From: a virus
Strand: one strand, 5' to 3'
UHGV virus genome: UHGV-1616493
DNA length: 10,396 nt
Both the position numbers and the translations under genes were made by a program. Below the pieces are notes generated by a model. It worked only from the letters and a program-made list of their open reading frames with translations. It ran no database searches and was not told where the DNA came from. Shown here piece by piece: positions 1,210 to 9,964 of the stretch (within the stretch, counting starts at the first letter, position 1; every line of letters starts with the position of its first letter).

Positions 1210-2226
1210 TTACGCCGCGTCATCCATCGTAATTTTCAAAACGAAGTCTGGACGCATTGGGATCTGAATTTGTGATAGCTCGCTGACCACCTCATAATTC
1301 ATGAACTTATCACGCAGAACGTAATGGTAAGACGGATAAACCGGACCATTAGCAACGTCAGCATGACGGCTCGCCGGAGTCTGGTAAGTCATATAAGGTG
1401 AAAGGTCGCCTTCAACAACATTGGAGAACGTCGCCAGCATGTAGCCTTCACCATCTGCAATGCCGTATAGCGGATCGTCAACCTGAACTACAGTTACGCG
1501 CCCGATGTTGTATCGATCATATGCGCCCAAAGTGTCAGGGAAAATGATGTCACGGGACGTAGCACCAAACAGAGCCGCCTGATATGCGGTTGGGTTGCCT
1601 TGAATGGCGGTGAAAAGACTCGGACTCGCTAGCAGATAAACCTGCTTGATGCTGGAAGACCAGCCACCCAGATTTTTCTTCAGCAGCGTGACAGCGTTCT
1701 GCATCTCAGTAATAACGTTGGCACTGATGCCAGTTTTCACCACAGCAGACGGCTGGTTAATACCCCAGAAGGTTTGCCAGTTCAGATCAGGACCTTCACG
1801 AAGGTGTGTCGCCTCTACAGTATTGTGAAGCAGGCTCTGCGCCATGGCATATTCAACATCACGGCGGGTTTGCAGGTAGTGCTTCAGGGTATGATTAGCA
1901 ACTACATCTTCAGCGGTCATCTGGCGATTTGTTCCCGGCTGACGTTTCCCCTGCCAATCCTGGCTGGTGATGGTTGAGCTGTAGACATGCAGTGGAGCCT
2001 GAACAGTCACGTTAGCCGCTTTAGGGAAGTTTAGACCGGACATTTCAGAACCATAACGGGCAACAGATTTGGTCACTTCACGCTGCACATCTTCCAGTGT
2101 GTCGAGCGCGATGATTTGCGTATCACTTGGACGGCTGGTAAAGATCCCCAGGCTGGACAGAAGGAACCCCTCGCCGCTTGGCTTCACAAACTGACCGGAA
2201 AGGTTAGTAAAATCACTTAATTTCAT
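1210..2226 (-). CDS. Phage major capsid protein, lambda gpE-like (338 aa)
   Basis: Size matches E-family capsid proteins (about 340 aa). It sits 18 nt downstream of a 120-aa decoration-like gene, as in lambdoid D-E pairs. The C-terminal ...PMRPDFVLKITM resembles the ...PDEFVSVQLA end of lambda gpE. GGAG SD upstream of the ATG at 2226. Homology recalled from memory, not searched. Confidence 0.6.
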   Translation of the reverse strand: MKLSDFTNLSGQFVKPSGEGFLLSSLGIFTSRPSDTQIIALDTLEDVQREVTKSVARYGSEMSGLNFPKAANVTVQAPLHVYSSTITSQDWQGKRQPGTNRQMTAEDVVANHTLKHYLQTRRDVEYAMAQSLLHNTVEATHLREGPDLNWQTFWGINQPSAVVKTGISANVITEMQNAVTLLKKNLGGWSSSIKQVYLLASPSLFTAIQGNPTAYQAALFGATSRDIIFPDTLGAYDRYNIGRVTVVQVDDPLYGIADGEGYMLATFSNVVEGDLSPYMTYQTPASRHADVANGPVYPSYHYVLRDKFMNYEVVSELSQIQIPMRPDFVLKITMDDAA

Positions 2227-2244: not shown

Positions 2245-2607
2245 TTAGATTGCAGTGTTTGCGTCAGCAATGCGGTTGCCTTGCTTAACAAGGGCAGCGT
2301 AAGCAGCATCTTTTGCAGCAGCCGCTACAACCAGACCAGATGGATTGAACACACAGCCACGGTCTGAAATGACCAGGCTACGGGCATCACCAGCGATTTG
2401 ATTTTGCAGAGCTACAGCACAGTTATCAGCATCGGCTGCAACGTATGCCGCGCCAGTGGTCGGGTTAATCACATCACCACAAGTCACATCAGCAGCCAGA
2501 TCAAAGATCACGGTGCGCTTATGAAAGATCGGGCTATCGGTATAAACCAATACATCCTGTGGGGTTTTGCTTTCATGTTCGAATGCCATATTTTGTTGTA
2601 TCTCCAT
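2245..2607 (-). CDS. Head decoration-like protein (120 aa; possibly 113 aa from the second ATG at 2586)
   Basis: Small Ala/Gly/Val-rich protein directly upstream of the capsid gene and translationally close to it; position and size match lambda gpD-type decoration proteins. No strong SD at the first ATG. Confidence 0.45.
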   Translation of the reverse strand: MEIQQNMAFEHESKTPQDVLVYTDSPIFHKRTVIFDLAADVTCGDVINPTTGAAYVAADADNCAVALQNQIAGDARSLVISDRGCVFNPSGLVVAAAAKDAAYAALVKQGNRIADANTAI

Positions 2608-2621
2608 GCAATTTTTATAAT

Positions 2622-2726
2622 CCGGCGAATATGCCGGGTTGTGTTGAAAAAATACCGTCCATCGGACGGCATTCTTTTATTTGTATTCCCAACAGAAAAA
2701 GAGCCGGAGGCAGGAAAACGCCTGCC
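2622..2726. terminator. Cluster of three hairpins directly upstream of the capsid genes; the middle one is a bidirectional intrinsic terminator
   Basis: CCGGC-gaatat-GCCGG (2622-2637); CCGTCC-atc-GGACGG (2655-2669) flanked by CATTCTTTTATTTG on plus and TATTTTTTC on minus; GGCAGG-aaaacg-CCTGCC (2709-2726) followed on minus by a T-rich run. Confidence 0.45.
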
Positions 2727-2760
2727 CCGGTTGGTAGATCATCGGAGATGATGAAATTCA

Positions 2761-2792
2761 CCCGTTTACGGGTTAGCAACATGCGTTGCTAA
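2761..2792. promoter_or_regulatory. Adjacent palindromes, operator-like
   Basis: CCCG-ttta-CGGG (2761-2772) followed by TTAGCAAC-atgc-GTTGCTAA (2773-2792), perfect 8-bp arms with a 4-nt spacer, in the untranslated leader between the 713-aa gene and the capsid genes. Confidence 0.3.
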
Positions 2793-3250
2793 TAGCTTCA
2801 CGATGGTATTTTCTGATGGAGAGATTTGGAAAGCATGATCGGCGGGTCACGCTTCAGGAATGAGGGAGCACAGCAGCGGGAGACCTCATATCTTCGCTGC
2901 CGCACTCAATGCCAGTTTTCGTCTGGCAAGACGGCCTTCCGAGGATGAAAGGCTTTGGCAAATCTCCGATCCAAGGTCGGAGAAAATCTTTTCTGATACA
3001 GCCAGCGGCAATGGCCTAACCTTACCGTGAGAGGGTGCGAATATTGGCTGTATGAGAAAAGGCGCTCTGGGAAAAGCGCACTTTGATTCCTAAGGAGAAG
3101 GGAAAACATTTGGCTGTTGTAATTCACCTTGTATATTATTTTAACACGAATGATTATCATTTGCAACAACAAAAACAATAACATGGCGAATTCAACGGCC
3201 CTCTCTCGTGTGGGCCAATTTGCTGCGCCATTTTCGACGGAACGATGATT

Positions 3251-5392
3251 TTAGTCTGCAATCCCAAGGATGAGGTTATTCTGCGCGTGGTTGTTCTCCC
3301 TTATCTTGGTATCAACCAGCCCTGCGATCTTATCGTCATGGACAAACACATCCATCTGCTGATTAATGTTCGCTTGCCCGGTAACACTGACAGGAATCGG
3401 CTGTCGCAGCGTCATGCTGTCAATTGTCGGAACCGTAAACGTCGGTTGCTGGGGTGTCAGATAGTTCAGGCTAGGAACATTCAACGCTAGCGCTGGATCG
3501 TTATACGCCGTGCCTGAGCCAATATTGCTCGGTGCTGAACTATCCAGCCACGGGTAAATCTGCTTAAGCGTCTGACCGATGCTACGTGGATCAAAGCCTG
3601 TCTTTTCCTTAATCCAATCGGCAGCACCGTTTGCAGATTCATCTACCACGCTCGTATACACCGCATCCGGCAATGTCGCGCCTTTCTTAAGTTCTTCTCC
3701 GACTCGACCAGAGAAGGAGAGAATGTTGGTGGTTAGCTCACCAAGGGCAACGCCGAGGGCATCGGAAATTGGGATCAGTCCAGTCATCTTCTGACGTAGA
3801 GTTTCAGTATTGGCAGCGTACTGCCCCAGGCCTTCAACAAACGAGGCTGAGAAATGATCTGCAAGGCTGGTTTGCACTCGGTTGTACTCAGCACCTAACG
3901 CCGCCAGTTTATCGAGGTTGGCTTGCTGCGCATCAGATAGGGTCCATCCTTCAGAAGAGAGTTGATGCATACGCTGGATAAGTCCCTGCCCCTCATCATT
4001 GAACACTTCGAGGAAGACCGAACCATCATTCACAGCCTCAGCCAGGTGCCGGGTCTGGTTGTCCGTCCATTTGAAAGTTTTCTGCAACTGTTTCAGGTAA
4101 GTGATGAAGGTCGGAAAATCCAGCTTTTGCAGTTCTCCGATCACCTTCTGTGCTACCTTCTGGTTACCGTTGGTGGAGGTCAGCACATTGTTGATGATAT
4201 CTGCGAACTCGCCACCGCCGCTGAAATTCACCTGTCCAGTTTTCTTGTTACGTTTGAAAGAGCCGGTGTTTAACAATTCCCCGGCCTTTTCGGTTGTGTC
4301 CTTGTTGAGGTCAGCCAGCTTGTCAGCACTCAGTGAGTAACCAACACGGCTCATCGAGAGATCCTGAAGTGCAGCGAACTCAAGGTTGCTGATCCCGTAC
4401 TGCTGGAGTTTTTTCACATCGCGAGAGCGCTCAAGGCTTCCCTGGAGGGTCTGACCGACACGAGAAACGCCCATACTACCCACTAACGACGCACCACCAA
4501 TAACACCAGCAGCTGCAAGACCAGCTCTACCACCACGGCTTTCTGTGCGTACACGACCAGCACGAACACCTGCGGCTTTCTGCTCACGGGTCATACGCTG
4601 TTGCAGACGAGCCTGCTTGCGTAATTCGGTGGTGATACGAGCCATTTCGAAGCGGGTCTCTTCAACCGTATAGCGCTCTTCTTTCTGGGCTTTAAGTGCC
4701 TCTTTTGCTGCACTGATGGCTTTGTACCGGGTTGCAACGTCAGCGCCGTTCACGTTTGCCAGAGTCAGAGCGCTACGGCGCAAACTGTTGTAATAAGTCA
4801 CCTCGCGCTTAAGGCCTGCCTCTTTCTCACGCTGACGCTTCTCCTCCAAGGCCATCGCCTTTTTGGTGGCTGCGATGTCAGCAGCAACAGCGCCGTGACC
4901 ACGGTTCATCGCTGCATTTTGACGTGCCACCAGAGATGGATCGGAGTGAACTCCAGGCATGTTGGGATTGTAGGTCATTGCACGGGAGCGACTCGCCTGT
5001 CTCACCTTGTCAGATATCGCTGCTAGTCTGGCATTCTGCCGTGCGGCCTGTTCCTGCTGGGATAACTGACGCGCCTGTAATGAGGTCATTTTATTAGCGT
5101 GGGAGACTGCATCCCGTTCCATTTTGGCTTGTATCTGAGCTTGTTTCTGTTGCTGTTTTGACAATTGTTCAGCCTGGCGTAGCTTCGCTGTCTGGGCTTT
5201 CGCTGCGGCTAGTGCTGCTTTGCCTTCACTCTGGACGGTCCGCTTCTGGGCCTTCTCAAGCGCTTTAGCTGGTTTCTCATGAGCAGCCTTAAGCGAGATA
5301 ATCTTCTTTTTGGCTTTTTGATATGAGGCATCGTCTGTGATCCACGAGATTTCATTAACGGTGCTGGTAACAATCTTATTTGTGCCAGACAT
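3251..5392 (-). CDS. Large coiled-coil protein with a Gly-rich hydrophobic segment (713 aa); tail tape-measure-like, alternatively scaffold or ejection protein
   Basis: The N-terminal roughly 250 aa are rich in A/K/Q/E/R as in coiled coils. The central GLAAAGVIGGASLVGSMGVS segment resembles the Gly-rich hydrophobic patches of tape-measure proteins. The ORF track starts at GTG 5395, but ATG 5392 overlaps the upstream stop as TGATG (translational coupling), with GGGGG upstream. Confidence 0.45.
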   Translation of the reverse strand: MSGTNKIVTSTVNEISWITDDASYQKAKKKIISLKAAHEKPAKALEKAQKRTVQSEGKAALAAAKAQTAKLRQAEQLSKQQQKQAQIQAKMERDAVSHANKMTSLQARQLSQQEQAARQNARLAAISDKVRQASRSRAMTYNPNMPGVHSDPSLVARQNAAMNRGHGAVAADIAATKKAMALEEKRQREKEAGLKREVTYYNSLRRSALTLANVNGADVATRYKAISAAKEALKAQKEERYTVEETRFEMARITTELRKQARLQQRMTREQKAAGVRAGRVRTESRGGRAGLAAAGVIGGASLVGSMGVSRVGQTLQGSLERSRDVKKLQQYGISNLEFAALQDLSMSRVGYSLSADKLADLNKDTTEKAGELLNTGSFKRNKKTGQVNFSGGGEFADIINNVLTSTNGNQKVAQKVIGELQKLDFPTFITYLKQLQKTFKWTDNQTRHLAEAVNDGSVFLEVFNDEGQGLIQRMHQLSSEGWTLSDAQQANLDKLAALGAEYNRVQTSLADHFSASFVEGLGQYAANTETLRQKMTGLIPISDALGVALGELTTNILSFSGRVGEELKKGATLPDAVYTSVVDESANGAADWIKEKTGFDPRSIGQTLKQIYPWLDSSAPSNIGSGTAYNDPALALNVPSLNYLTPQQPTFTVPTIDSMTLRQPIPVSVTGQANINQQMDVFVHDDKIAGLVDTKIRENNHAQNNLILGIAD

Positions 5393-5820
5393 CACACCCC
5401 CTGATTGATATCGTAACCCAGACGCTCAAGCGCGGCGCGTTGTTCAGGTGTTAGCTCATCAAGACTTGCCTTCATCATGAGACTTACCGGACGCAGATTA
5501 GCGCTATAACCTTGGGCTTGGTGGCACAGAGCGATCCCTTTTTCCTTGATGGTTTTACCACTTTTTGGGGCTGGCTCGCTGGCTGTTGCAGTCGAAGCGG
5601 ACAGGTAACTCTGCACCGCCTCCGCCAATGCTTCTTCAGCGGATTTGTTCAGATCTTCCGGTTCGTCTGTTCCTGCGGTCATTGCTTCCCGGATACTGGC
5701 GCGGATTGCTTCAATGTTATTCATATTGTTATGTTTCCTGTAGAGGTCCAGGCCGTCACGAAGCCATTGGAGAACAGCTACCGCTAACGGCAGAAAGGAT
5801 AAATATTCAAATAGGGTCAA
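5392..5820 (-). CDS. Hypothetical protein (142 aa from TTG 5820; alternative ATG at 5724 gives 110 aa)
   Basis: ORF in the same reading frame as the upstream 173-aa ORF, separated from it only by the TAA at 5839-5841. No ATG start at the 5' end; an internal ATG at 5724 has AGGAAA 9 nt upstream. N-terminal hydrophobic stretch, acidic Ala-rich middle. Confidence 0.45.
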   Translation of the reverse strand: MTLFEYLSFLPLAVAVLQWLRDGLDLYRKHNNMNNIEAIRASIREAMTAGTDEPEDLNKSAEEALAEAVQSYLSASTATASEPAPKSGKTIKEKGIALCHQAQGYSANLRPVSLMMKASLDELTPEQRAALERLGYDINQGV

Positions 5821-5838
5821 GTTTCCCCGGCTGGGGTA

Positions 5839-6360
5839 TTAATAATGCAGTCGTGGTGATCGGCGTTGGGGCGCTGCCTGCTTGCGTGAAATAGTCTTCC
5901 GGTACTCAATGAACAACGGATCATCACTAACAGGCATTCGAGATGCCATTTCTTTTTCAGTGATTCCTTCACGCTTGAGCAGCGTTACCACAGTGAATAG
6001 AGGCAGTTGAAGGTCAGCACAGATTTTTGCCAGCATTGCGCCGGATTCGTAGTACATTCGGGCCATTCGCTTAGTAGCGTACTGACTGGTATTACTTATC
6101 TTGCGACAGCGAGGATTCCACGAGTTATCGTAAAGGCCTTTTACCAGGTCATACGGCAAGCGTAGGAGCAGCGCCGTTTTGCCTGGGGTGTAACCGTGAA
6201 CGAGCATTTTTTTAGCAGTCTCGATCAACGAGGTATCACGAGAGCGGGCCTTGTAAAAACGGGACAAATCAGGGGCGTCAGCACCGGATTTGTTTACCTC
6301 TGGTAAAGTGCTTCGCACCGTAAGGGTTTCAGCCGTCAGGCTGTTGGCAACATCACACAA
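5839..6360 (-). CDS. Hypothetical protein (173 aa), TTG start; possible DNA-binding or small-terminase-like
   Basis: TTG at 6360 preceded by GGAGG with a 5-nt spacer, 15 nt after the upstream stop. Basic protein with a helix-turn-helix-like stretch (LPLFTVVTLLKREGITEKE). Function not recognised. Confidence 0.5.
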   Translation of the reverse strand: MCDVANSLTAETLTVRSTLPEVNKSGADAPDLSRFYKARSRDTSLIETAKKMLVHGYTPGKTALLLRLPYDLVKGLYDNSWNPRCRKISNTSQYATKRMARMYYESGAMLAKICADLQLPLFTVVTLLKREGITEKEMASRMPVSDDPLFIEYRKTISRKQAAPQRRSPRLHY

Positions 6361-6374
6361 TTATTCCTCCAGTA

Positions 6375-7121
6375 TCAGAAAGGGATCGAGTCATCATAAT
6401 CAAGCGGCAGCTCATCTGCTGGGGCGTTAACCTGTTGTTCTACTGACTCCGGTGCGGGTACATGATAATTTTGAATAAACAGATTCATGCTGTCCTCATC
6501 GCTGCTGATACCATGAGAGAGACAAAACGCTTTTGCTTCTTCATCCAGTCCCCAATTGCGCCATCGCCTCAGCTTGGTGCCTAATTGTTCATCGGTATAC
6601 CTATCAGAAGCGTTCACCGCATCATCATTGGCAGGTACATCAGCATCGACAGGAATATCCACAACAGGTAGGCCGTCTGGTTTTCCAGCAACAGGCGCGG
6701 CAGGTTCCACCACGAAAGATTCCACATCACGTTTCTGCTCATTCTTACCGCTCTCCTCGGTTTCCACTTTTCTATTACTCACCTGCGTGGAATTATGATC
6801 GTCAAGAAAAACCATCAACGATGGATCGAGTTCGACCGGAGAAATTTTGTGTGTTCTCCCCTGCTCTTCCTCAAAAGTGATCATTCCCGCTTCACGAAGC
6901 TTGTTCCTGAAATTACGAACGGCTTCGGGCTTGCAGCCGCAACGTTTACCAATCATGCCAACAGACTCGTAATAAGTTCTGCCTGTTTTGTCATAGCTGT
7001 AAACCAGAGATAGCAAAATTTTCATGTTGCCATTAATGGTCAGGCCGTTGTACTCGGTAAGGTCGAGAATGCTGTATTCAAGTTTTACAAAATCCTTACT
7101 GTCCCGGTTCTGTTTGCTCAT
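6375..7121 (-). CDS. Winged-helix-like DNA-binding protein with acidic C-terminal domain (248 aa); candidate replication initiator or transcriptional activator
   Basis: ATG at 7121 with GGAG and a 6-nt spacer. The N-terminal roughly 100 aa look like an HTH/winged-helix fold (GKRCGCKPEAVRNFRNKLREAGMITFEE); the C-terminal half is acidic and ends ...DELPLDYDDSIPF. Overlaps the upstream 67-aa gene by 26 nt. Confidence 0.55.
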   Translation of the reverse strand: MSKQNRDSKDFVKLEYSILDLTEYNGLTINGNMKILLSLVYSYDKTGRTYYESVGMIGKRCGCKPEAVRNFRNKLREAGMITFEEEQGRTHKISPVELDPSLMVFLDDHNSTQVSNRKVETEESGKNEQKRDVESFVVEPAAPVAGKPDGLPVVDIPVDADVPANDDAVNASDRYTDEQLGTKLRRWRNWGLDEEAKAFCLSHGISSDEDSMNLFIQNYHVPAPESVEQQVNAPADELPLDYDDSIPF

Positions 7122-7299
7122 TCTGTTCTCCGTAAAGTGTCGCCTTGCTGGCTAATGCTGGTTTGATGTCTGGTGTGTTGTCGAAAATGTTCGCGGCAGT
7201 CTCCAAGATTTCATTACAGAGCCGTGCCAGGGGCTTGTCCTGCCTTTTGGCCTCAGCTAGTAGAGCCTGATAAACGTGCTGTTGAAATTTGATGTTCAT
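7096..7299 (-). CDS. Small ribbon-helix-helix-like putative transcriptional regulator (67 aa)
   Basis: ATG at 7299 preceded by GAGGAGG. The N-terminal pattern (beta-strand-like NIKFQQHVYQ, then two short helices LLAEAKRQ / LARLCNEILETAANIF) fits Arc/MetJ/CopG-type RHH proteins. Confidence 0.5.
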   Translation of the reverse strand: MNIKFQQHVYQALLAEAKRQDKPLARLCNEILETAANIFDNTPDIKPALASKATLYGEQNEQTEPGQ

Positions 7300-7386
7300 T
7301 CAAGTTGTCCTCCTCGTTTTAGGTACAAAAGACCTCCCGCCAGTGGTCGCCCAAAGGCGAACCGGCTCAGGTTTTGTTCAGTGTTG

Positions 7387-7833
7387 TTAGACTGCGGTTG
7401 CGGTCGGGAAGTCACCCGCACAGGTGTAACCGTAGGATTCCAGACGTTCCACACCATCAGTGGCGATCAAGAGCAAGATCACCTGTTCTGGTGTCAGGTC
7501 CAGATTCAGTTTTTCTCTATATAGCTCGCGGTAGCCCTGTAACACAGGATTCAGGATTTGCGTTAAGGAATTACCCTCAGCATATTTATTGCTCAGAGGC
7601 TTCAGCACCGTCTTAACCACTCGTGCCTGCTTCGCTTTCTTCCGCGCCTGCTTCAGGATTTGCAGGCAGACGGCGATCTGAGGAAGTCGAGCATGTACAG
7701 CGTCTGCCCCGCCGTTTCTACTAATGAAGGCCCACAAAGCTGATTTGGTGTATTTGCCGTTCAGGATGAGATCAGCGATCTGCTCGCCTGTCATAGTGGT
7801 CAGGTCGAGACGTTGGGATTTTGGTTTATTCAT
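7387..7833 (-). CDS. Hypothetical protein (148 aa), first gene of the minus-strand array
   Basis: ATG at 7833 with GGAG and a 6-nt spacer; preceded by a long AT-rich untranslated region. Predicted helical and basic; no family recognised. Confidence 0.55.
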   Translation of the reverse strand: MNKPKSQRLDLTTMTGEQIADLILNGKYTKSALWAFISRNGGADAVHARLPQIAVCLQILKQARKKAKQARVVKTVLKPLSNKYAEGNSLTQILNPVLQGYRELYREKLNLDLTPEQVILLLIATDGVERLESYGYTCAGDFPTATAV

Positions 7834-8049
7834 TGGGTTCTCCGTTCTGTTAAAAGAATTATTCGCGGAGGTTCTATTTGTAACCCATTTTGTATTGCCG
7901 TGAGGTTGACAAGGAATGTCGTGATGACGGCAGAATTATTCGAGGATTCGTAGGTAAATCATTACCCTACTAAAATCTATTGTATCAGATTTGTTTGTAA
8001 ATAGCAATCATTATCATGTAGCATTTTATAATGCATAATAATCACCATA

Positions 8050-8078
8050 ACATTACAAGTTTAAAAAATCTTTGTCAA
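8050..8078 (-). promoter_or_regulatory. Candidate sigma70 promoter driving the minus-strand array
   Basis: On the minus strand: TTGACA (8078-8073), 17-bp A/T-rich spacer, TAATGT (8055-8050). It lies in an AT-rich zone (about 7960-8080) with several imperfect palindromes, roughly 210 nt upstream of the first gene. Confidence 0.35.
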
Positions 8079-8286
8079 TAGTGCTAGATCGTTCTGTGAC
8101 GCGTTCTGCGGGGACTCGTCGTTATAGCAGTACCATCGTGTTACCCACACCATTTAAACGCCGTAGAGAGGCGCTGAGGAAGTCAGTTAGACAACCCGCG
8201 CCGCCCCGGAGTGAACCGGACAGATGCAAAGCAGTCCTCTCCGCCGTGCTCCGATCCACATATGGCGAACAAGTTCGCAGCTTCCA

Positions 8287-8470
8287 CACAGAGTGAGAGC
8301 GTAGCTCTCTGGCGTAGCCTGTCGGGTTACCCGAGTCACAGAGCGTAGCGATGTGTTAACGAGGGTTAGAAGGTCACGAGATGGCGCGGCTGTTTCACGT
8401 CAGCAAAGGTGAGCTTCTTACCACAAACATATCTGAAGTGGCTGACCAGCCATTGCAGAGCGGAGCGATG
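8287..8470. repeat. Dispersed GAGCGTAGC-type motif copies in a GC-rich non-coding block
   Basis: CAGAGCGTAGCGATG (8339-8353) and CAGAGCGGAGCGATG (8456-8470) match 14/15. GAGAGC-gta-GCTCTC forms a perfect hairpin at 8295-8309, and GGCGTAGC occurs at 8311-8318. Confidence 0.45.
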
Positions 8471-8581
8471 CAGAAGCATCACTATTAAAACTAACAGAAT
8501 GACCAACCGTCATTCCGTGCTCTCGACCTGGAGGTACTTTTCTTATCAGTTCTTTTATGGAGATTGTTATTTATTATTATT

Positions 8582-8672
8582 GTGCTCGAAAATCGACTAC
8601 CCCCTACTCGAAAATCGTGCAGGTAGGTGCTCGAAAATCGAGGGGGTGGGTACACGAAAATCGTGCAGGTAT
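8582..8672. repeat. Iteron-like array: four copies of CTCGAAAATCG phased at 22-23 bp, next to an AT-rich tract
   Basis: Copies at 8585-8595, 8607-8617, 8630-8640 and 8653-8663 (the last is CACGAAAATCG). Alternate units carry TCGTGCAGGTA (8615-8625, 8661-8671); the others carry inverted ACCCCCT (8599-8605) and AGGGGGT (8641-8647). AT-rich tract at 8541-8583. Confidence 0.6.
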
Positions 8673-9964
8673 CACCGGGTGAGAATTTTCCAAGTCATCC
8701 AAGCGACCAACGCACCGATGAAAACTTCTGGTTTGATATGTCCGCGTCATGCTTCAATGGCACAATCGACGGCAACACCTGAGGCGGTCCAGGCACCTGA
8801 TCCGCTCCGAGAATTGATCATCTCCCTCCCCCGCTTTCATCTGAAAATACCGACCATTCTCCGCGCTGGCTGAAGATTGGCAACCCTATACTAGTTTTCT
8901 GTGAAAATTTGGTGGATGATCTTTATCATTGGCTATCCTGCGAACAAAGTAGATTAAATACACCTCAAATAGCCTATAATCCGTAGTTAATCATGCTAAA
9001 GTGGTCACTAAACGTACAAATCACAAGTTTGTACCTATGGGCGTTATGGTGTGGTGCATGCAGCGAAGCCAGTAATGGCGCGGCCTAGGCGAATCCGCCA
9101 ATTGAATGGGTGCTAAACACAACCCACTTTCTGAACCATCTTTTTACAAAAAATAAAAAAGACACATTAAAACTAAAACAGATGTCCTCTGGTGGTTCCT
9201 GTATCGCGCTGTGGGATGTCGTGGATTATCGGTACGTCAGTTTACATCTGGGGGGATAACGCACTGTAGCGCTTCTGGTGGAGCGTAGAAGGGATTGGTG
9301 GGTTGGCTGTTTACATTGTTTTGGGAAATGGTACGAAACAGTGGCGGTCAGGCTCGTGAATATCACCAGGTGATGGCAGACCTTCAGCCCGTTGTGGTAA
9401 CGTCGGTGTAGTGGCTTTGTGTCTGCTGGTAAACAGAAAAAAGTGCTTTTATGGCGTTTGACACACTGGCAGCCTCAAAGGTCTGAAACCTGAAATTGTG
9501 TGGTGACCAGGCAAACTCATCCAAAATCCTTGAACAAGAGAACTCACCTCGAATCCTCCTGAATGCTTTCCTTCTGTTGGTGAAATCGCTGTTGTGTACC
9601 CAGCTTCGCGTCAACGTTCCGAAAAGTAATACCTGACCATTCCAGTCAAGTACTTATAAGAACCATTATGTTAAATAGACCAGAAAACGAACAGTAGAAT
9701 GCCCTATTGCGGCAAGTTTTCCCTGCTGTGATGCTCTACGGGATGAAGTGGTGAAATACGTTACTGGGCCTGTCGGCTCTGCGATATTTCAGCAAGAAGA
9801 TAAGAAATTATTGAGGGATCGTCTGTCACGTCAGGCACCTGGCCCAGAGAGCCGTAAGATATTTTCAGCAAGAGCATGTAAGCTGGATCGTCAAATAGCA
9901 GGGACATCCATGAGGTGGGGTAGATGAGTTGCCGGGAATTTTACCCGGCAGACCGTATGACAGA

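Follow-up and report, generated by a model that had tools for sequence, protein, structure and literature searches.

A conserved structured leader RNA with its own predicted promoter and tandem terminators precedes the capsid genes of satellite-like islands in Enterobacterales

Introduction

The late genes of phage lambda lie behind a compact control unit in which promoter pR', the qut site, the 6S RNA and terminator tR' are combined; Q acts as the antiterminator, and the element that confers specificity is located between the -35 and -10 regions. Here, we describe a locus with a related layout that precedes genes for a lambda gpD-like decoration protein and a gpE-like major capsid protein in a stretch of 10,396 nucleotides filed as UHGV virus genome UHGV-1616493 (this whole stretch is called the window in the following, and positions are counted from its first letter). 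A first-pass annotation, made from the letters alone, had drawn attention to the interval between the decoration gene and the next gene upstream, which encodes a protein of 713 amino acids. Our main finding is that this gap holds a real, conserved leader RNA that is structured, has not been described before and comes with a predicted promoter and tandem terminators of its own.

Other described systems also bear on this arrangement. In the RNA-based immunity of satellite P4 (CI RNA, seqA/seqC) and in the c4 RNA of P1 and P7, a constitutive promoter and a structured leader RNA end transcription early. Among satellites, cf-PICI possess a full capsid and packaging module consisting of capsid, protease, portal, head-tail connectors and terminase and, to our knowledge, the way in which satellites time their structural genes to the helper is known for few systems, i.e., delta/Ogr in P4, LtrC-type activators in SaPI and AlpA in PICI. 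The put RNA of phage HK022 binds the zinc-binding domain of the RNA polymerase beta' subunit. It is a cis-acting antiterminator RNA of about 70 nucleotides with two stems that needs no protein (PMC9378689), and canT of Tn916 is a cis-acting processive antiterminator RNA residing in a mobile element (PMC11658703).

With the lambda late unit, the locus shares a strong promoter, a non-coding transcript and an intrinsic terminator before late structural genes; the site of the lambda specificity element is taken by a variable A/T-rich or palindromic promoter spacer, and the capsid proteins are distantly similar to gpD and gpE. The differences are a leader that is two to three times longer and has a covarying fold not needed for Q control, the presence of two or three terminators, and the lack of a recognised Q gene, Q-binding or pause element. 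Of the parts of a Q unit, a sigma-70 promoter followed by one or more terminators upstream of structural genes is present; neither the spacer element nor the sequence AAGGUGA / AGGGUGAU, which is conserved around +3 to +12 of the transcript, could be matched to a known qut site. Comparison of the island proteins with Pfam and PHROG families gave no hit to a Q-family antiterminator; a Q protein may be encoded by the helper. With put and canT, the locus shares a structured sense-strand RNA with abutting stem-loops between promoter and terminators in a mobile element. It differs from put (about 70 nucleotides, two stems) by having at least 12 helices over about 430 nucleotides, and there is no sequence similarity.

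Results and Discussion

A predicted promoter and tandem terminators in the gap upstream of the capsid genes

The window was compared with E. coli islands at other integration sites (L002-L004), with 14 further loci from genomes of Enterobacter, Pseudocitrobacter, Kluyvera, Silvania, Citrobacter, Pseudenterobacter, Winslowiella and Dryocola, and with seven IMG/VR contigs. The island family spans at least nine enterobacterial genera, and a gap of 570-940 bp between the decoration gene and the gene upstream of it is present in every relative examined. Several relatives (L005, L009, L011, L014 and L015) do not contain the gene for the 713-amino-acid protein and still keep the gap, which therefore travels with the capsid genes.

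In the window, the gap comprises 661 bp (2590-3250) and contains no annotated coding sequence in the identical RefSeq record. Fifteen open reading frames (ORFs) of at least 25 amino acids are found on its two strands, none of which is kept beyond one to four relatives sharing near-identical DNA there. The hypothesis of a small ORF in the gap was therefore rejected, in line with the earlier statement that no credible ORF is located here. The minimum free energy (MFE) calculated for the minus strand is -181 kcal/mol (z = -7.9 versus shuffled sequences), so that the RNA folding suggested as a check reveals a strand far more structured than chance; the plus strand reaches z = -4.8. A scan for terminator-like sites returned five, with 1.1 expected. 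On the minus strand, the order is a weak terminator-like hairpin, the promoter, the folded RNA, terminators T3 and T4, a last hairpin and the ATG of the decoration gene at 2589:

3183-3231, minus strand: T1, terminator-like hairpin just past the stop codon (3253-3251) of the 713-amino-acid gene, U-rich tail GUUAUUGUUUUUGUUGUU at 3182-3165
3138-3166, minus strand: capsid-module promoter, -35 TTGCAA at 3166-3161, 17-nt spacer, extended -10 TGtTAAAAT at 3146-3138
3149-3161: perfect 13-bp palindrome AATGATAATCATT in the promoter spacer
2693-2730, minus strand: T3, intrinsic terminator, stem 2730-2721 with 2714-2704, then CUCUUUUUCUG at 2703-2693
2647-2677, minus strand: T4, intrinsic terminator, A-tract, stem CCGUCC/GGACGG and U-tract UAUUUUUU, 14-bp extended stem
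2622-2637, minus strand: last hairpin CCGGC-auauuc-GCCGG, 32 nt before the decoration ATG (2589-2587)
2245-2589, minus strand: lambda gpD-like decoration protein, weak Pfam match to HDPD
1210-2226, minus strand: gpE-like major capsid protein, weak Pfam match to Phage_cap_E, 'major capsid protein' in RefSeq

The promoter scan identified the -10 hexamer TAAAAT at 3143-3138 together with an upstream TG, and transcription is predicted to start near 3132-3130. The pattern TTGnnn-N13-15-TGnTAnnnT occurs at the equivalent position in 22 of the 25 related loci, from at least nine genera. Between the window and L003, the promoter block is the best-conserved part (93% over 75 bp), with capsid proteins that are only 33% identical. 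The first-pass annotation had overlooked both this conserved extended -10 promoter and the covarying RNA inside the region. It had also proposed an untranslated leader of 640 bp. The region is indeed untranslated, but its first approximately 85 bp are occupied by T1 and the promoter, and the transcribed leader measures about 540 nt (about 3131 to 2590). T1 is a candidate for a weak terminator, with a calculated fold energy not above chance (z = -0.35). A small plus-strand ORF at T1 differs from its L002 counterpart by five substitutions, all of them non-synonymous (alignment inspected by eye).

L030, the island of E. coli SCU-316, is instructive. Relative to the other parts of the island, its capsid module (3759-7120) is inverted; it diverges from the replication operon and is still preceded by a long non-coding leader. 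The L030 promoter has the same -35 element and spacer; its -10 element reads TAAACT and it is thus outside the pattern found in 22 of 25 loci. The leader itself (840 nt) is unrelated in sequence to the window RNA, highly structured (z = -6.6) and equipped with terminator-like hairpins. Judging from the sequences compared, promoter, leader and capsid genes travel as one unit. The L030 island adjoins rcnR, carries an 'ATP-dependent nuclease' as cargo and is apparently located at the same thiM-rcnR site.

By the textbook definition of an intrinsic (Rho-independent) terminator, i.e., a G+C-rich hairpin followed by a U-tract on the sense strand, the sequences of T3 and T4 both qualify as such. In our own scan, about 19 of 22 loci had a terminator at the place equivalent to T3, 100-300 nt upstream of the start of the decoration gene. 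T3 corresponds to helix 1 of the covariance model R3 (see below), and seven of its ten pairs show compensatory changes: the stems vary, the U-tract is constant. T4 is helix 2 of R3 (94% of cells paired, 3 of 14 pairs compensatory), and the last hairpin is helix 3 (two of five pairs compensatory). The Shine-Dalgarno sequence of the decoration gene, GGAG, is found at 2605-2602. A hairpin with A- and U-tracts on either side had been noticed before about 50 nt upstream of the decoration gene; it lies at 2647-2677 and ends 57 nt before the RefSeq start (2589) and 39 nt before the start of a longer ORF (2607). The accompanying claim that no room is left for a promoter behind this hairpin goes too far. 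A consensus scan predicted no sigma-70-like promoter in 2590-2700, but 57 nt would physically accommodate one.

A covarying RNA on the capsid-sense strand

The leader RNA is conserved, non-coding, about 430-480 nt long and composed of at least 12 helices, instead of the three hairpins originally reported. The same architecture is predicted locus by locus downstream of the promoter. Upstream of T3, the following elements are found in the window:

3092-3130, minus strand: P1, Shine-Dalgarno-like 5' end AAGGUGA paired with a CU-rich strand
3062-3079, minus strand: P2 hairpin, terminator-like, followed by invariant CUUUUCU at 3061-3055
2988-3061, minus strand: P3 long stem, 3061-3045 paired with 3004-2988, base CUUUUCU/AGAAAAG, abutting P2
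3040-3038 with 3027-3025: P3a, inner hairpin with loop CACCCUCUCA
3021-3019 with 3009-3007: P3b, inner hairpin
2856-2987, minus strand: domain B, consisting of P4, P5 (with P5a and P5b) and P6, fold z = -4.0
2983-2977 with 2969-2963: P4
2960-2956 with 2914-2910: P5, enclosing P5a and P5b
2953-2947 with 2940-2934: P5a
2933-2929 with 2924-2920: P5b
2907-2895 with 2878-2866: P6, followed by conserved CCUCAUUCCU at 2865-2856
2687-2822, minus strand: long-range pairing in the MFE structure, A-rich UCUCCAUCAGAAAA at 2822-2809 with U-rich UUUUCUGUUGGGA at 2699-2687 after T3

MAFFT placed P1, P4 and P5a in different registers across loci. Three covariance models were therefore started from small sets of two to four closely related sequences whose structures had been checked by hand, and the other sequences were aligned to them with Infernal; P1 was left out. 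The results for the three models were as follows:

Domain A (P2, P3, P3a, P3b; R1, A8): 17 sequences, 98.6% of cells paired, 16 of 29 pairs compensatory, slid controls 36-52%
Domain B (P4-P6; R2, A11): 19 sequences, 93.7% of cells paired, 28 of 36 pairs compensatory, slid controls 34-45%
Terminator domain (T3, T4, last hairpin; R3, A13): 13 sequences, 95.4% of cells paired, 12 of 29 pairs compensatory, slid controls 36-57%

Taken together, 56 of 94 pairs exhibit compensatory changes, and in none of the three models did any of 500 shuffles reach the observed pairing values. P2, helix 1 of R1, is a particularly clear case, with five of seven pairs compensatory and at least six different stem sequences. 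In the raw sequences, these include GCGCUUU/AGAGCGC, GCCUGUGUG/CGUGCGGGC, GGCUCUG/CAGAGCC, GCGGUUUUG/GAGCCGC and GGGCU/AGCCC. For helices 2-5 of R1, 11 of 22 pairs are compensatory and 98.7-100% of cells are paired. CUUUUCU/AGAAAAG is the only invariant helix of domain A, which fits a U-tract constrained to stay U-rich; by its predicted structure, P2 together with the CUUUUCU tail resembles a weak terminator.

Summed over the three alignments, there are 144 G-U cells and 16 A-C cells. The helices therefore form in the capsid-sense RNA and not in duplex DNA or in an antisense transcript; an RNA from the opposite strand was ruled out by this ratio together with the weaker plus-strand z-score. 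In domains A and B, nucleotide identity to the window is 61-97%, even where the capsid protein is only 26-33% identical. Since the RNA stayed this similar while the capsid proteins drifted to about 27%, it probably contacts something shared, for instance RNA polymerase or a factor supplied by the host or by a common helper.

The leader contains a number of recurring motifs. The P1 loop holds the conserved motif UACAACAGCCAA (3121-3110), which is followed by CCCUUCUCCUUA (3102-3091), and CU-rich motifs return in loops and linkers (CUUCUCCUUA, CACCCUCUCA, AUCCUC, GGUCUCCC, CCUCAUUCCU). The long-range pairing encloses the variable region and T3, and its two strands are conserved and change together when the alignment is inspected by eye, as exemplified by UGUCAGAAAA/UUUUCUGACA in L017. 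ACAGCCAA is present in the P1 loop (3110-3121) and in the 5' arm of P3 (3045-3053), with the complement UGGCUGU in the 3' arm of P3 (2996-3004). By eye, the copy in the P1 loop tends to co-vary with the P3 arms across loci. Many relatives have UCAUUCC twice, once in the 3' arm of P1 and once behind P6 (2856-2865). Such repetitions in the sequence may be hints at alternative or long-range pairings. The P4 CI and c4 RNAs likewise offer a parallel to a leader that repeats short motifs (ACAGCCAA twice plus its complement, UCAUUCC twice), although the controlled genes are those for the capsid in the present islands and those for replication in P4. The Rfam C4 family had no credible match in 2500-3350, and no trans pairing was supported for the ten translation-initiation regions of the island.

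Matches to known RNAs and sites were sought as well. The 4227 models of Rfam 15 yielded only three chance-level hits in 2500-3350 at E values up to 5 (a microRNA, Atu_C4 and SOX2OT), so that no Rfam family matches the leader RNA. DNA searches with the gap and the promoter block against 50,697 phage records, late regions included, returned nothing but one 38-nt match to the cassette described below. A look by eye for RfaH ops, lambda boxA/boxB, P2 Ogr/P4 delta sites and lambda cosN gave no convincing match.

A leader of this kind might act on its own account, as a stand-alone RNA that ends at T3/T4 and works in trans on mRNAs or proteins of helper or host, with its place before the capsid genes being incidental or serving insulation. 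It might do so, for example, via CU-rich, anti-Shine-Dalgarno-like loops, or as a short RNA of about 78 nt ending at P2. The strong promoter and strong terminators belonging to the RNA, its conservation beyond that of the neighbouring proteins, the recurrence of the CU-rich motifs in loops and linkers and the invariant U-tract after P2 are all consistent with such a role. However, pairing with the ten translation-initiation regions of the island is not favoured (all |z| < 1.2), the U-tract after P2 comprises just four consecutive U residues and pairs into P3, and the capsid genes would be left with no visible promoter. We consider a trans-acting RNA rather improbable.

Possible control of capsid gene expression

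The spacer of the promoter deserves attention. A palindrome between the -35 and -10 elements of a strong promoter is the usual position of a repressor site, and the palindrome in the spacer is likely to provide a second layer of control by a repressor. The 19-bp consensus of the E. coli Fur box is GATAATGATAATCATTATC, and AATGATAATCATT forms the core of this consensus, with 14 of 19 positions matching. As in Fur-repressed E. coli promoters, the core agrees perfectly with the Fur box and sits between the -35 and -10 elements. In contrast to those promoters, no more than 14 of the 19 positions agree and just a subset of the family carries the element, namely eight of the 22 family promoters plus L030, the others having different A/T-rich spacers. 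Iron and capsid genes are not known to be linked biologically. A further copy of the spacer element, which would have pointed to an operator specific to the island, was not consistently found elsewhere in each island.

The succession of promoter, RNA and terminators suggests how the capsid genes may be controlled. The extended -10 promoter (3166-3138, minus strand) would start transcription near 3131, and its product would be the conserved non-coding RNA, with a length of about 430-480 nt and at least 12 helices. This RNA would end at T3 and T4, which lie 60-140 nt upstream of the decoration ATG. Only polymerases that come from this promoter, or from further upstream, and pass T3 and T4 would then transcribe the decoration and capsid genes. 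The island would thus keep its capsid genes off via termination and turn them on via read-through. Two triggers can be envisaged, a helper-phage antiterminator engaging the promoter or leader in the manner of Q at lambda pR', or the folded RNA acting in cis on the polymerase like put RNA or canT. By analogy with lambda, the first option could account for the variable spacer element, with no Q or qut site identified.

Since no promoter is predicted after T4, termination-gated capsid expression is the best reading of the locus, and we put its chances at about even. The earlier proposal that the capsid genes need read-through is sustained insofar as terminators do lie between the only predicted promoter and the genes, a layout kept in the relatives including L030; antitermination is the presumed means. 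As the terminators are kept in this place across the family, read-through is the most economical interpretation. The promoter motif with its conservation, the fold and strand of the RNA, the terminators and the lack of coding potential are seen in the sequences themselves; activity of the promoter, termination at T3 and T4 in vivo and regulation of read-through are inferred from them.

Several points weigh against this reading. The transcription start, the efficiency of termination and read-through are predictions. L012 and L021 appear to be devoid of T3, L005 and L007 lack parts of domain A, and an activator-dependent promoter after T4 would escape a consensus scan. The alignments used to count covariation had been fitted to models that were themselves derived from this structure, and this favours it. 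No antiterminator gene was recognised in the island, nor any other regulator homologue of this kind, in comparisons of its proteins with Pfam and PHROGs and of three proteins with PDB sequences. When the capsid protein was used to look for the helper, the best phage matches, in Pseudomonas, Klebsiella and Pectobacterium phages, were only about 24% identical. Finally, 280 nt of conserved and covarying structure are more than a simple gate made of terminators would require, and the RNA is therefore probably not just a spacer.

In a different assignment of roles, the RNA would itself be a cis-acting processive antiterminator of the put/canT kind, T3 and T4 would stop only transcripts lacking it, and a repressor bound to the spacer palindrome would be the switch. 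Precedents exist in HK022 put (PMC9378689) and Tn916 canT (PMC11658703). In favour of this idea, the mobile element has a conserved and structured sense-strand RNA that is preceded by a strong promoter and followed by several terminators; the directly abutting stem-loops P2 and P3, the spacer palindrome at the classic position for a repressor and the absence of a recognised antiterminator protein from the island also agree with it. On the other hand, put measures about 70 nt as opposed to 280-430 nt for the leader RNA, the phage records contain no matching sequence except for the cassette, L030 keeps promoter and terminators but has an unrelated leader, and parts of domain A are absent from L005 and L007. 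By analogy with the two precedents, such a mechanism is conceivable, but we deem it unlikely.

Two outcomes are of different weight. Should the RNA be a mere spacer with terminators, the locus would be an ordinary late-operon gate. Should it be the switch, it would join the few transcription-antitermination devices of mobile elements as a new RNA family and would provide a simple handle, testable with reporters, for finding the helper. The prospects of the RNA being a new regulatory device in its own right are fair. The more specific proposal, that it represents a new class of large structured non-coding RNAs confined to an as yet undescribed family of capsid-encoding satellites of Enterobacterales and serves as the active device, be it a processive antiterminator that works independently of proteins and far exceeds put and canT in size or a sensor of a helper factor that times capsid synthesis, is put forward tentatively and we would sooner expect it to fail than to hold.

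A movable three-hairpin cassette in the leader

The variable part of the leader contains one further element:

2760-2804: three-hairpin cassette, composed of AUCGugaagCUAU (ATCG...CGAT), the 8-4-8 palindrome and ACCCG-uaaa-CGGGU

The middle hairpin is formed by the palindrome TTAGCAAC-N4-GTTGCTAA (RNA UUAGCAAC-gcau-GUUGCUAA) at 2773-2792, which had been spotted in the first-pass annotation and is unique in the window. It had been taken for the site of a dimeric regulator and, in an extended version of this idea, it would be the operator of a regulator encoded at 6375-7833 that controls read-through. In favour of this view, the two 8-bp arms form a perfect inverted repeat around a 4-bp gap, and the sequence occurs once in the window. 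Its distribution speaks against it. Measured from the -35 element, the cassette is found at +194 and +214 in L019 and L002, at +375 in the window and L020, and at +452 and +463 in L007 and L006. It is located right after P3 in L002 and L019, between the A-rich strand of the long-range pairing and T3 in the window and L020, and after T3 in L006 and L007. It is also present in L009. L004, L010 and L013 contain a variant after P3 in which the hairpins are reversed (i.e., the reverse complement), with TTTAAAAC-N3-GTTTTAAA as the middle palindrome, and 15 of the 25 loci have no cassette at all. As position and orientation vary, the cassette is best described as a small insert that can move within a part of the leader tolerant of it, and not as an operator at a fixed distance from the promoter or terminators. 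In addition, the hairpin next to the palindrome has undergone a compensatory change (CCCG/CGGG to CUCG/CGAG), and the 248-amino-acid helix-turn-helix (HTH) protein encoded in 6375-7833 resembles replication initiators, none of the proteins from this region being antiterminator-like. An operator function of the palindrome is thus the least probable of all explanations considered here, and by a wide measure an improbable one.

The cassette is the only part of the gap with a counterpart in the phage records searched. A 38-nt match (89.5%) is found once per genome in two virulent Salmonella phages of the genus Seunavirus, in unannotated A/T-rich DNA. The near-copies are located in NINP13076 (L026 1485-1540) and in SalP219 (146750-146787). 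In NINP13076, the copy is nested in an inverted repeat, AAATGATAATA...TATTATCATTT, that resembles the palindrome in the satellite promoter spacer. Based on sequence similarity, the near-copies could be a clue to the helper phage or to a small mobile element.

These near-copies, and the fact that the cassette exists in either orientation, would also fit a site acting at the DNA level, i.e., a cos/pac packaging signal or a replication origin; since the island does not encode a terminase, it needs a packaging site somewhere. However, the predominance of G-U over A-C cells and the compensatory changes point to RNA and not to duplex DNA, no known cos sequence was matched, and the cassette is absent from the majority of relatives mentioned above. 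A cos/pac role is conceivable for the cassette, but it would leave the RNA-type covariation unexplained. A replication origin in the gap was rejected because the gap is free of iterons, whereas four are found at 8582-8671. All in all, we regard a DNA-level site as very unlikely.

The island and its other genes

The window is part of an E. coli chromosome and is 99.9% identical to strains TC24 and AREA_C483. In TC24, it sits within an island of about 13 kb that is bounded by two copies of the thiM thiamine pyrophosphate (TPP) riboswitch. One riboswitch lies at 10-106 on the minus strand of the window (73.6 bits) and is the sole match above an Rfam gathering score in the window. In L001, the copies occupy 9511-9607 and 22880-22976; RefSeq annotates a second copy at the far island end beside the integrase. 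It appears that integration of the island into the thiM leader duplicated the riboswitch as an attachment-site repeat. All island genes in the window are oriented on the minus strand, except for a 211-amino-acid ORF at 291-926. Apart from the decoration and capsid genes, the following features were recorded in the direction of transcription:

Outside the window, upstream end of the island: tyrosine integrase and several small genes
7834-9964: 2.1-kb stretch without annotation
Minus strand, between the 2.1-kb stretch and the next gene listed: genes for proteins of 148 and 67 amino acids
Minus strand: gene for the 248-amino-acid HTH protein, replication-initiator-like
Minus strand, between the 248- and the 713-amino-acid genes: genes for proteins of 173 and 110 amino acids
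3251-5392, minus strand: gene for the 713-amino-acid protein, weak matches to PHROG 'tail length tape measure'
Minus strand, downstream of the major capsid gene: gene for a protein of 70 amino acids

The decoration and capsid gene pair has one match to PHROG 29. Portal, protease and terminase were not recognised among the island proteins with RefSeq, Pfam and PHROGs. In appearance, the element is a phage satellite equipped with shell proteins of its own. It differs from cf-PICI, as decoration protein, major capsid protein and the tape-measure-like 713-amino-acid protein are the only module components recognised, and a 13-kb island with capsid and tape-measure-like proteins and without portal and terminase fits no described satellite family. 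Literature searches retrieved no description of the island family or the leader RNA. The homologue of the 713-amino-acid protein in L030 (9844-11958) is named tape measure protein by PGAP; other homologues are designated 'chemotaxis protein'.

The 2.1-kb stretch contains no ORF matching a PHROG family and has no match in phage DNA. Within it, at 8582-8671, there are four direct repeats of about 15-21 nt that are GTGCTCGAAAATCGA-like and spaced at 22-23 bp; they resemble iterons and probably mark a replication origin. A second extended -10 promoter, TTGCTA-N14-TGATACAAT, is located at 7979-8018 on the minus strand upstream of the gene for the 148-amino-acid protein and is also present in L002. 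Its -35 element is overlapped by CATGATAATGATT, which holds a perfect left half of the Fur-box consensus, GATAATGAT.

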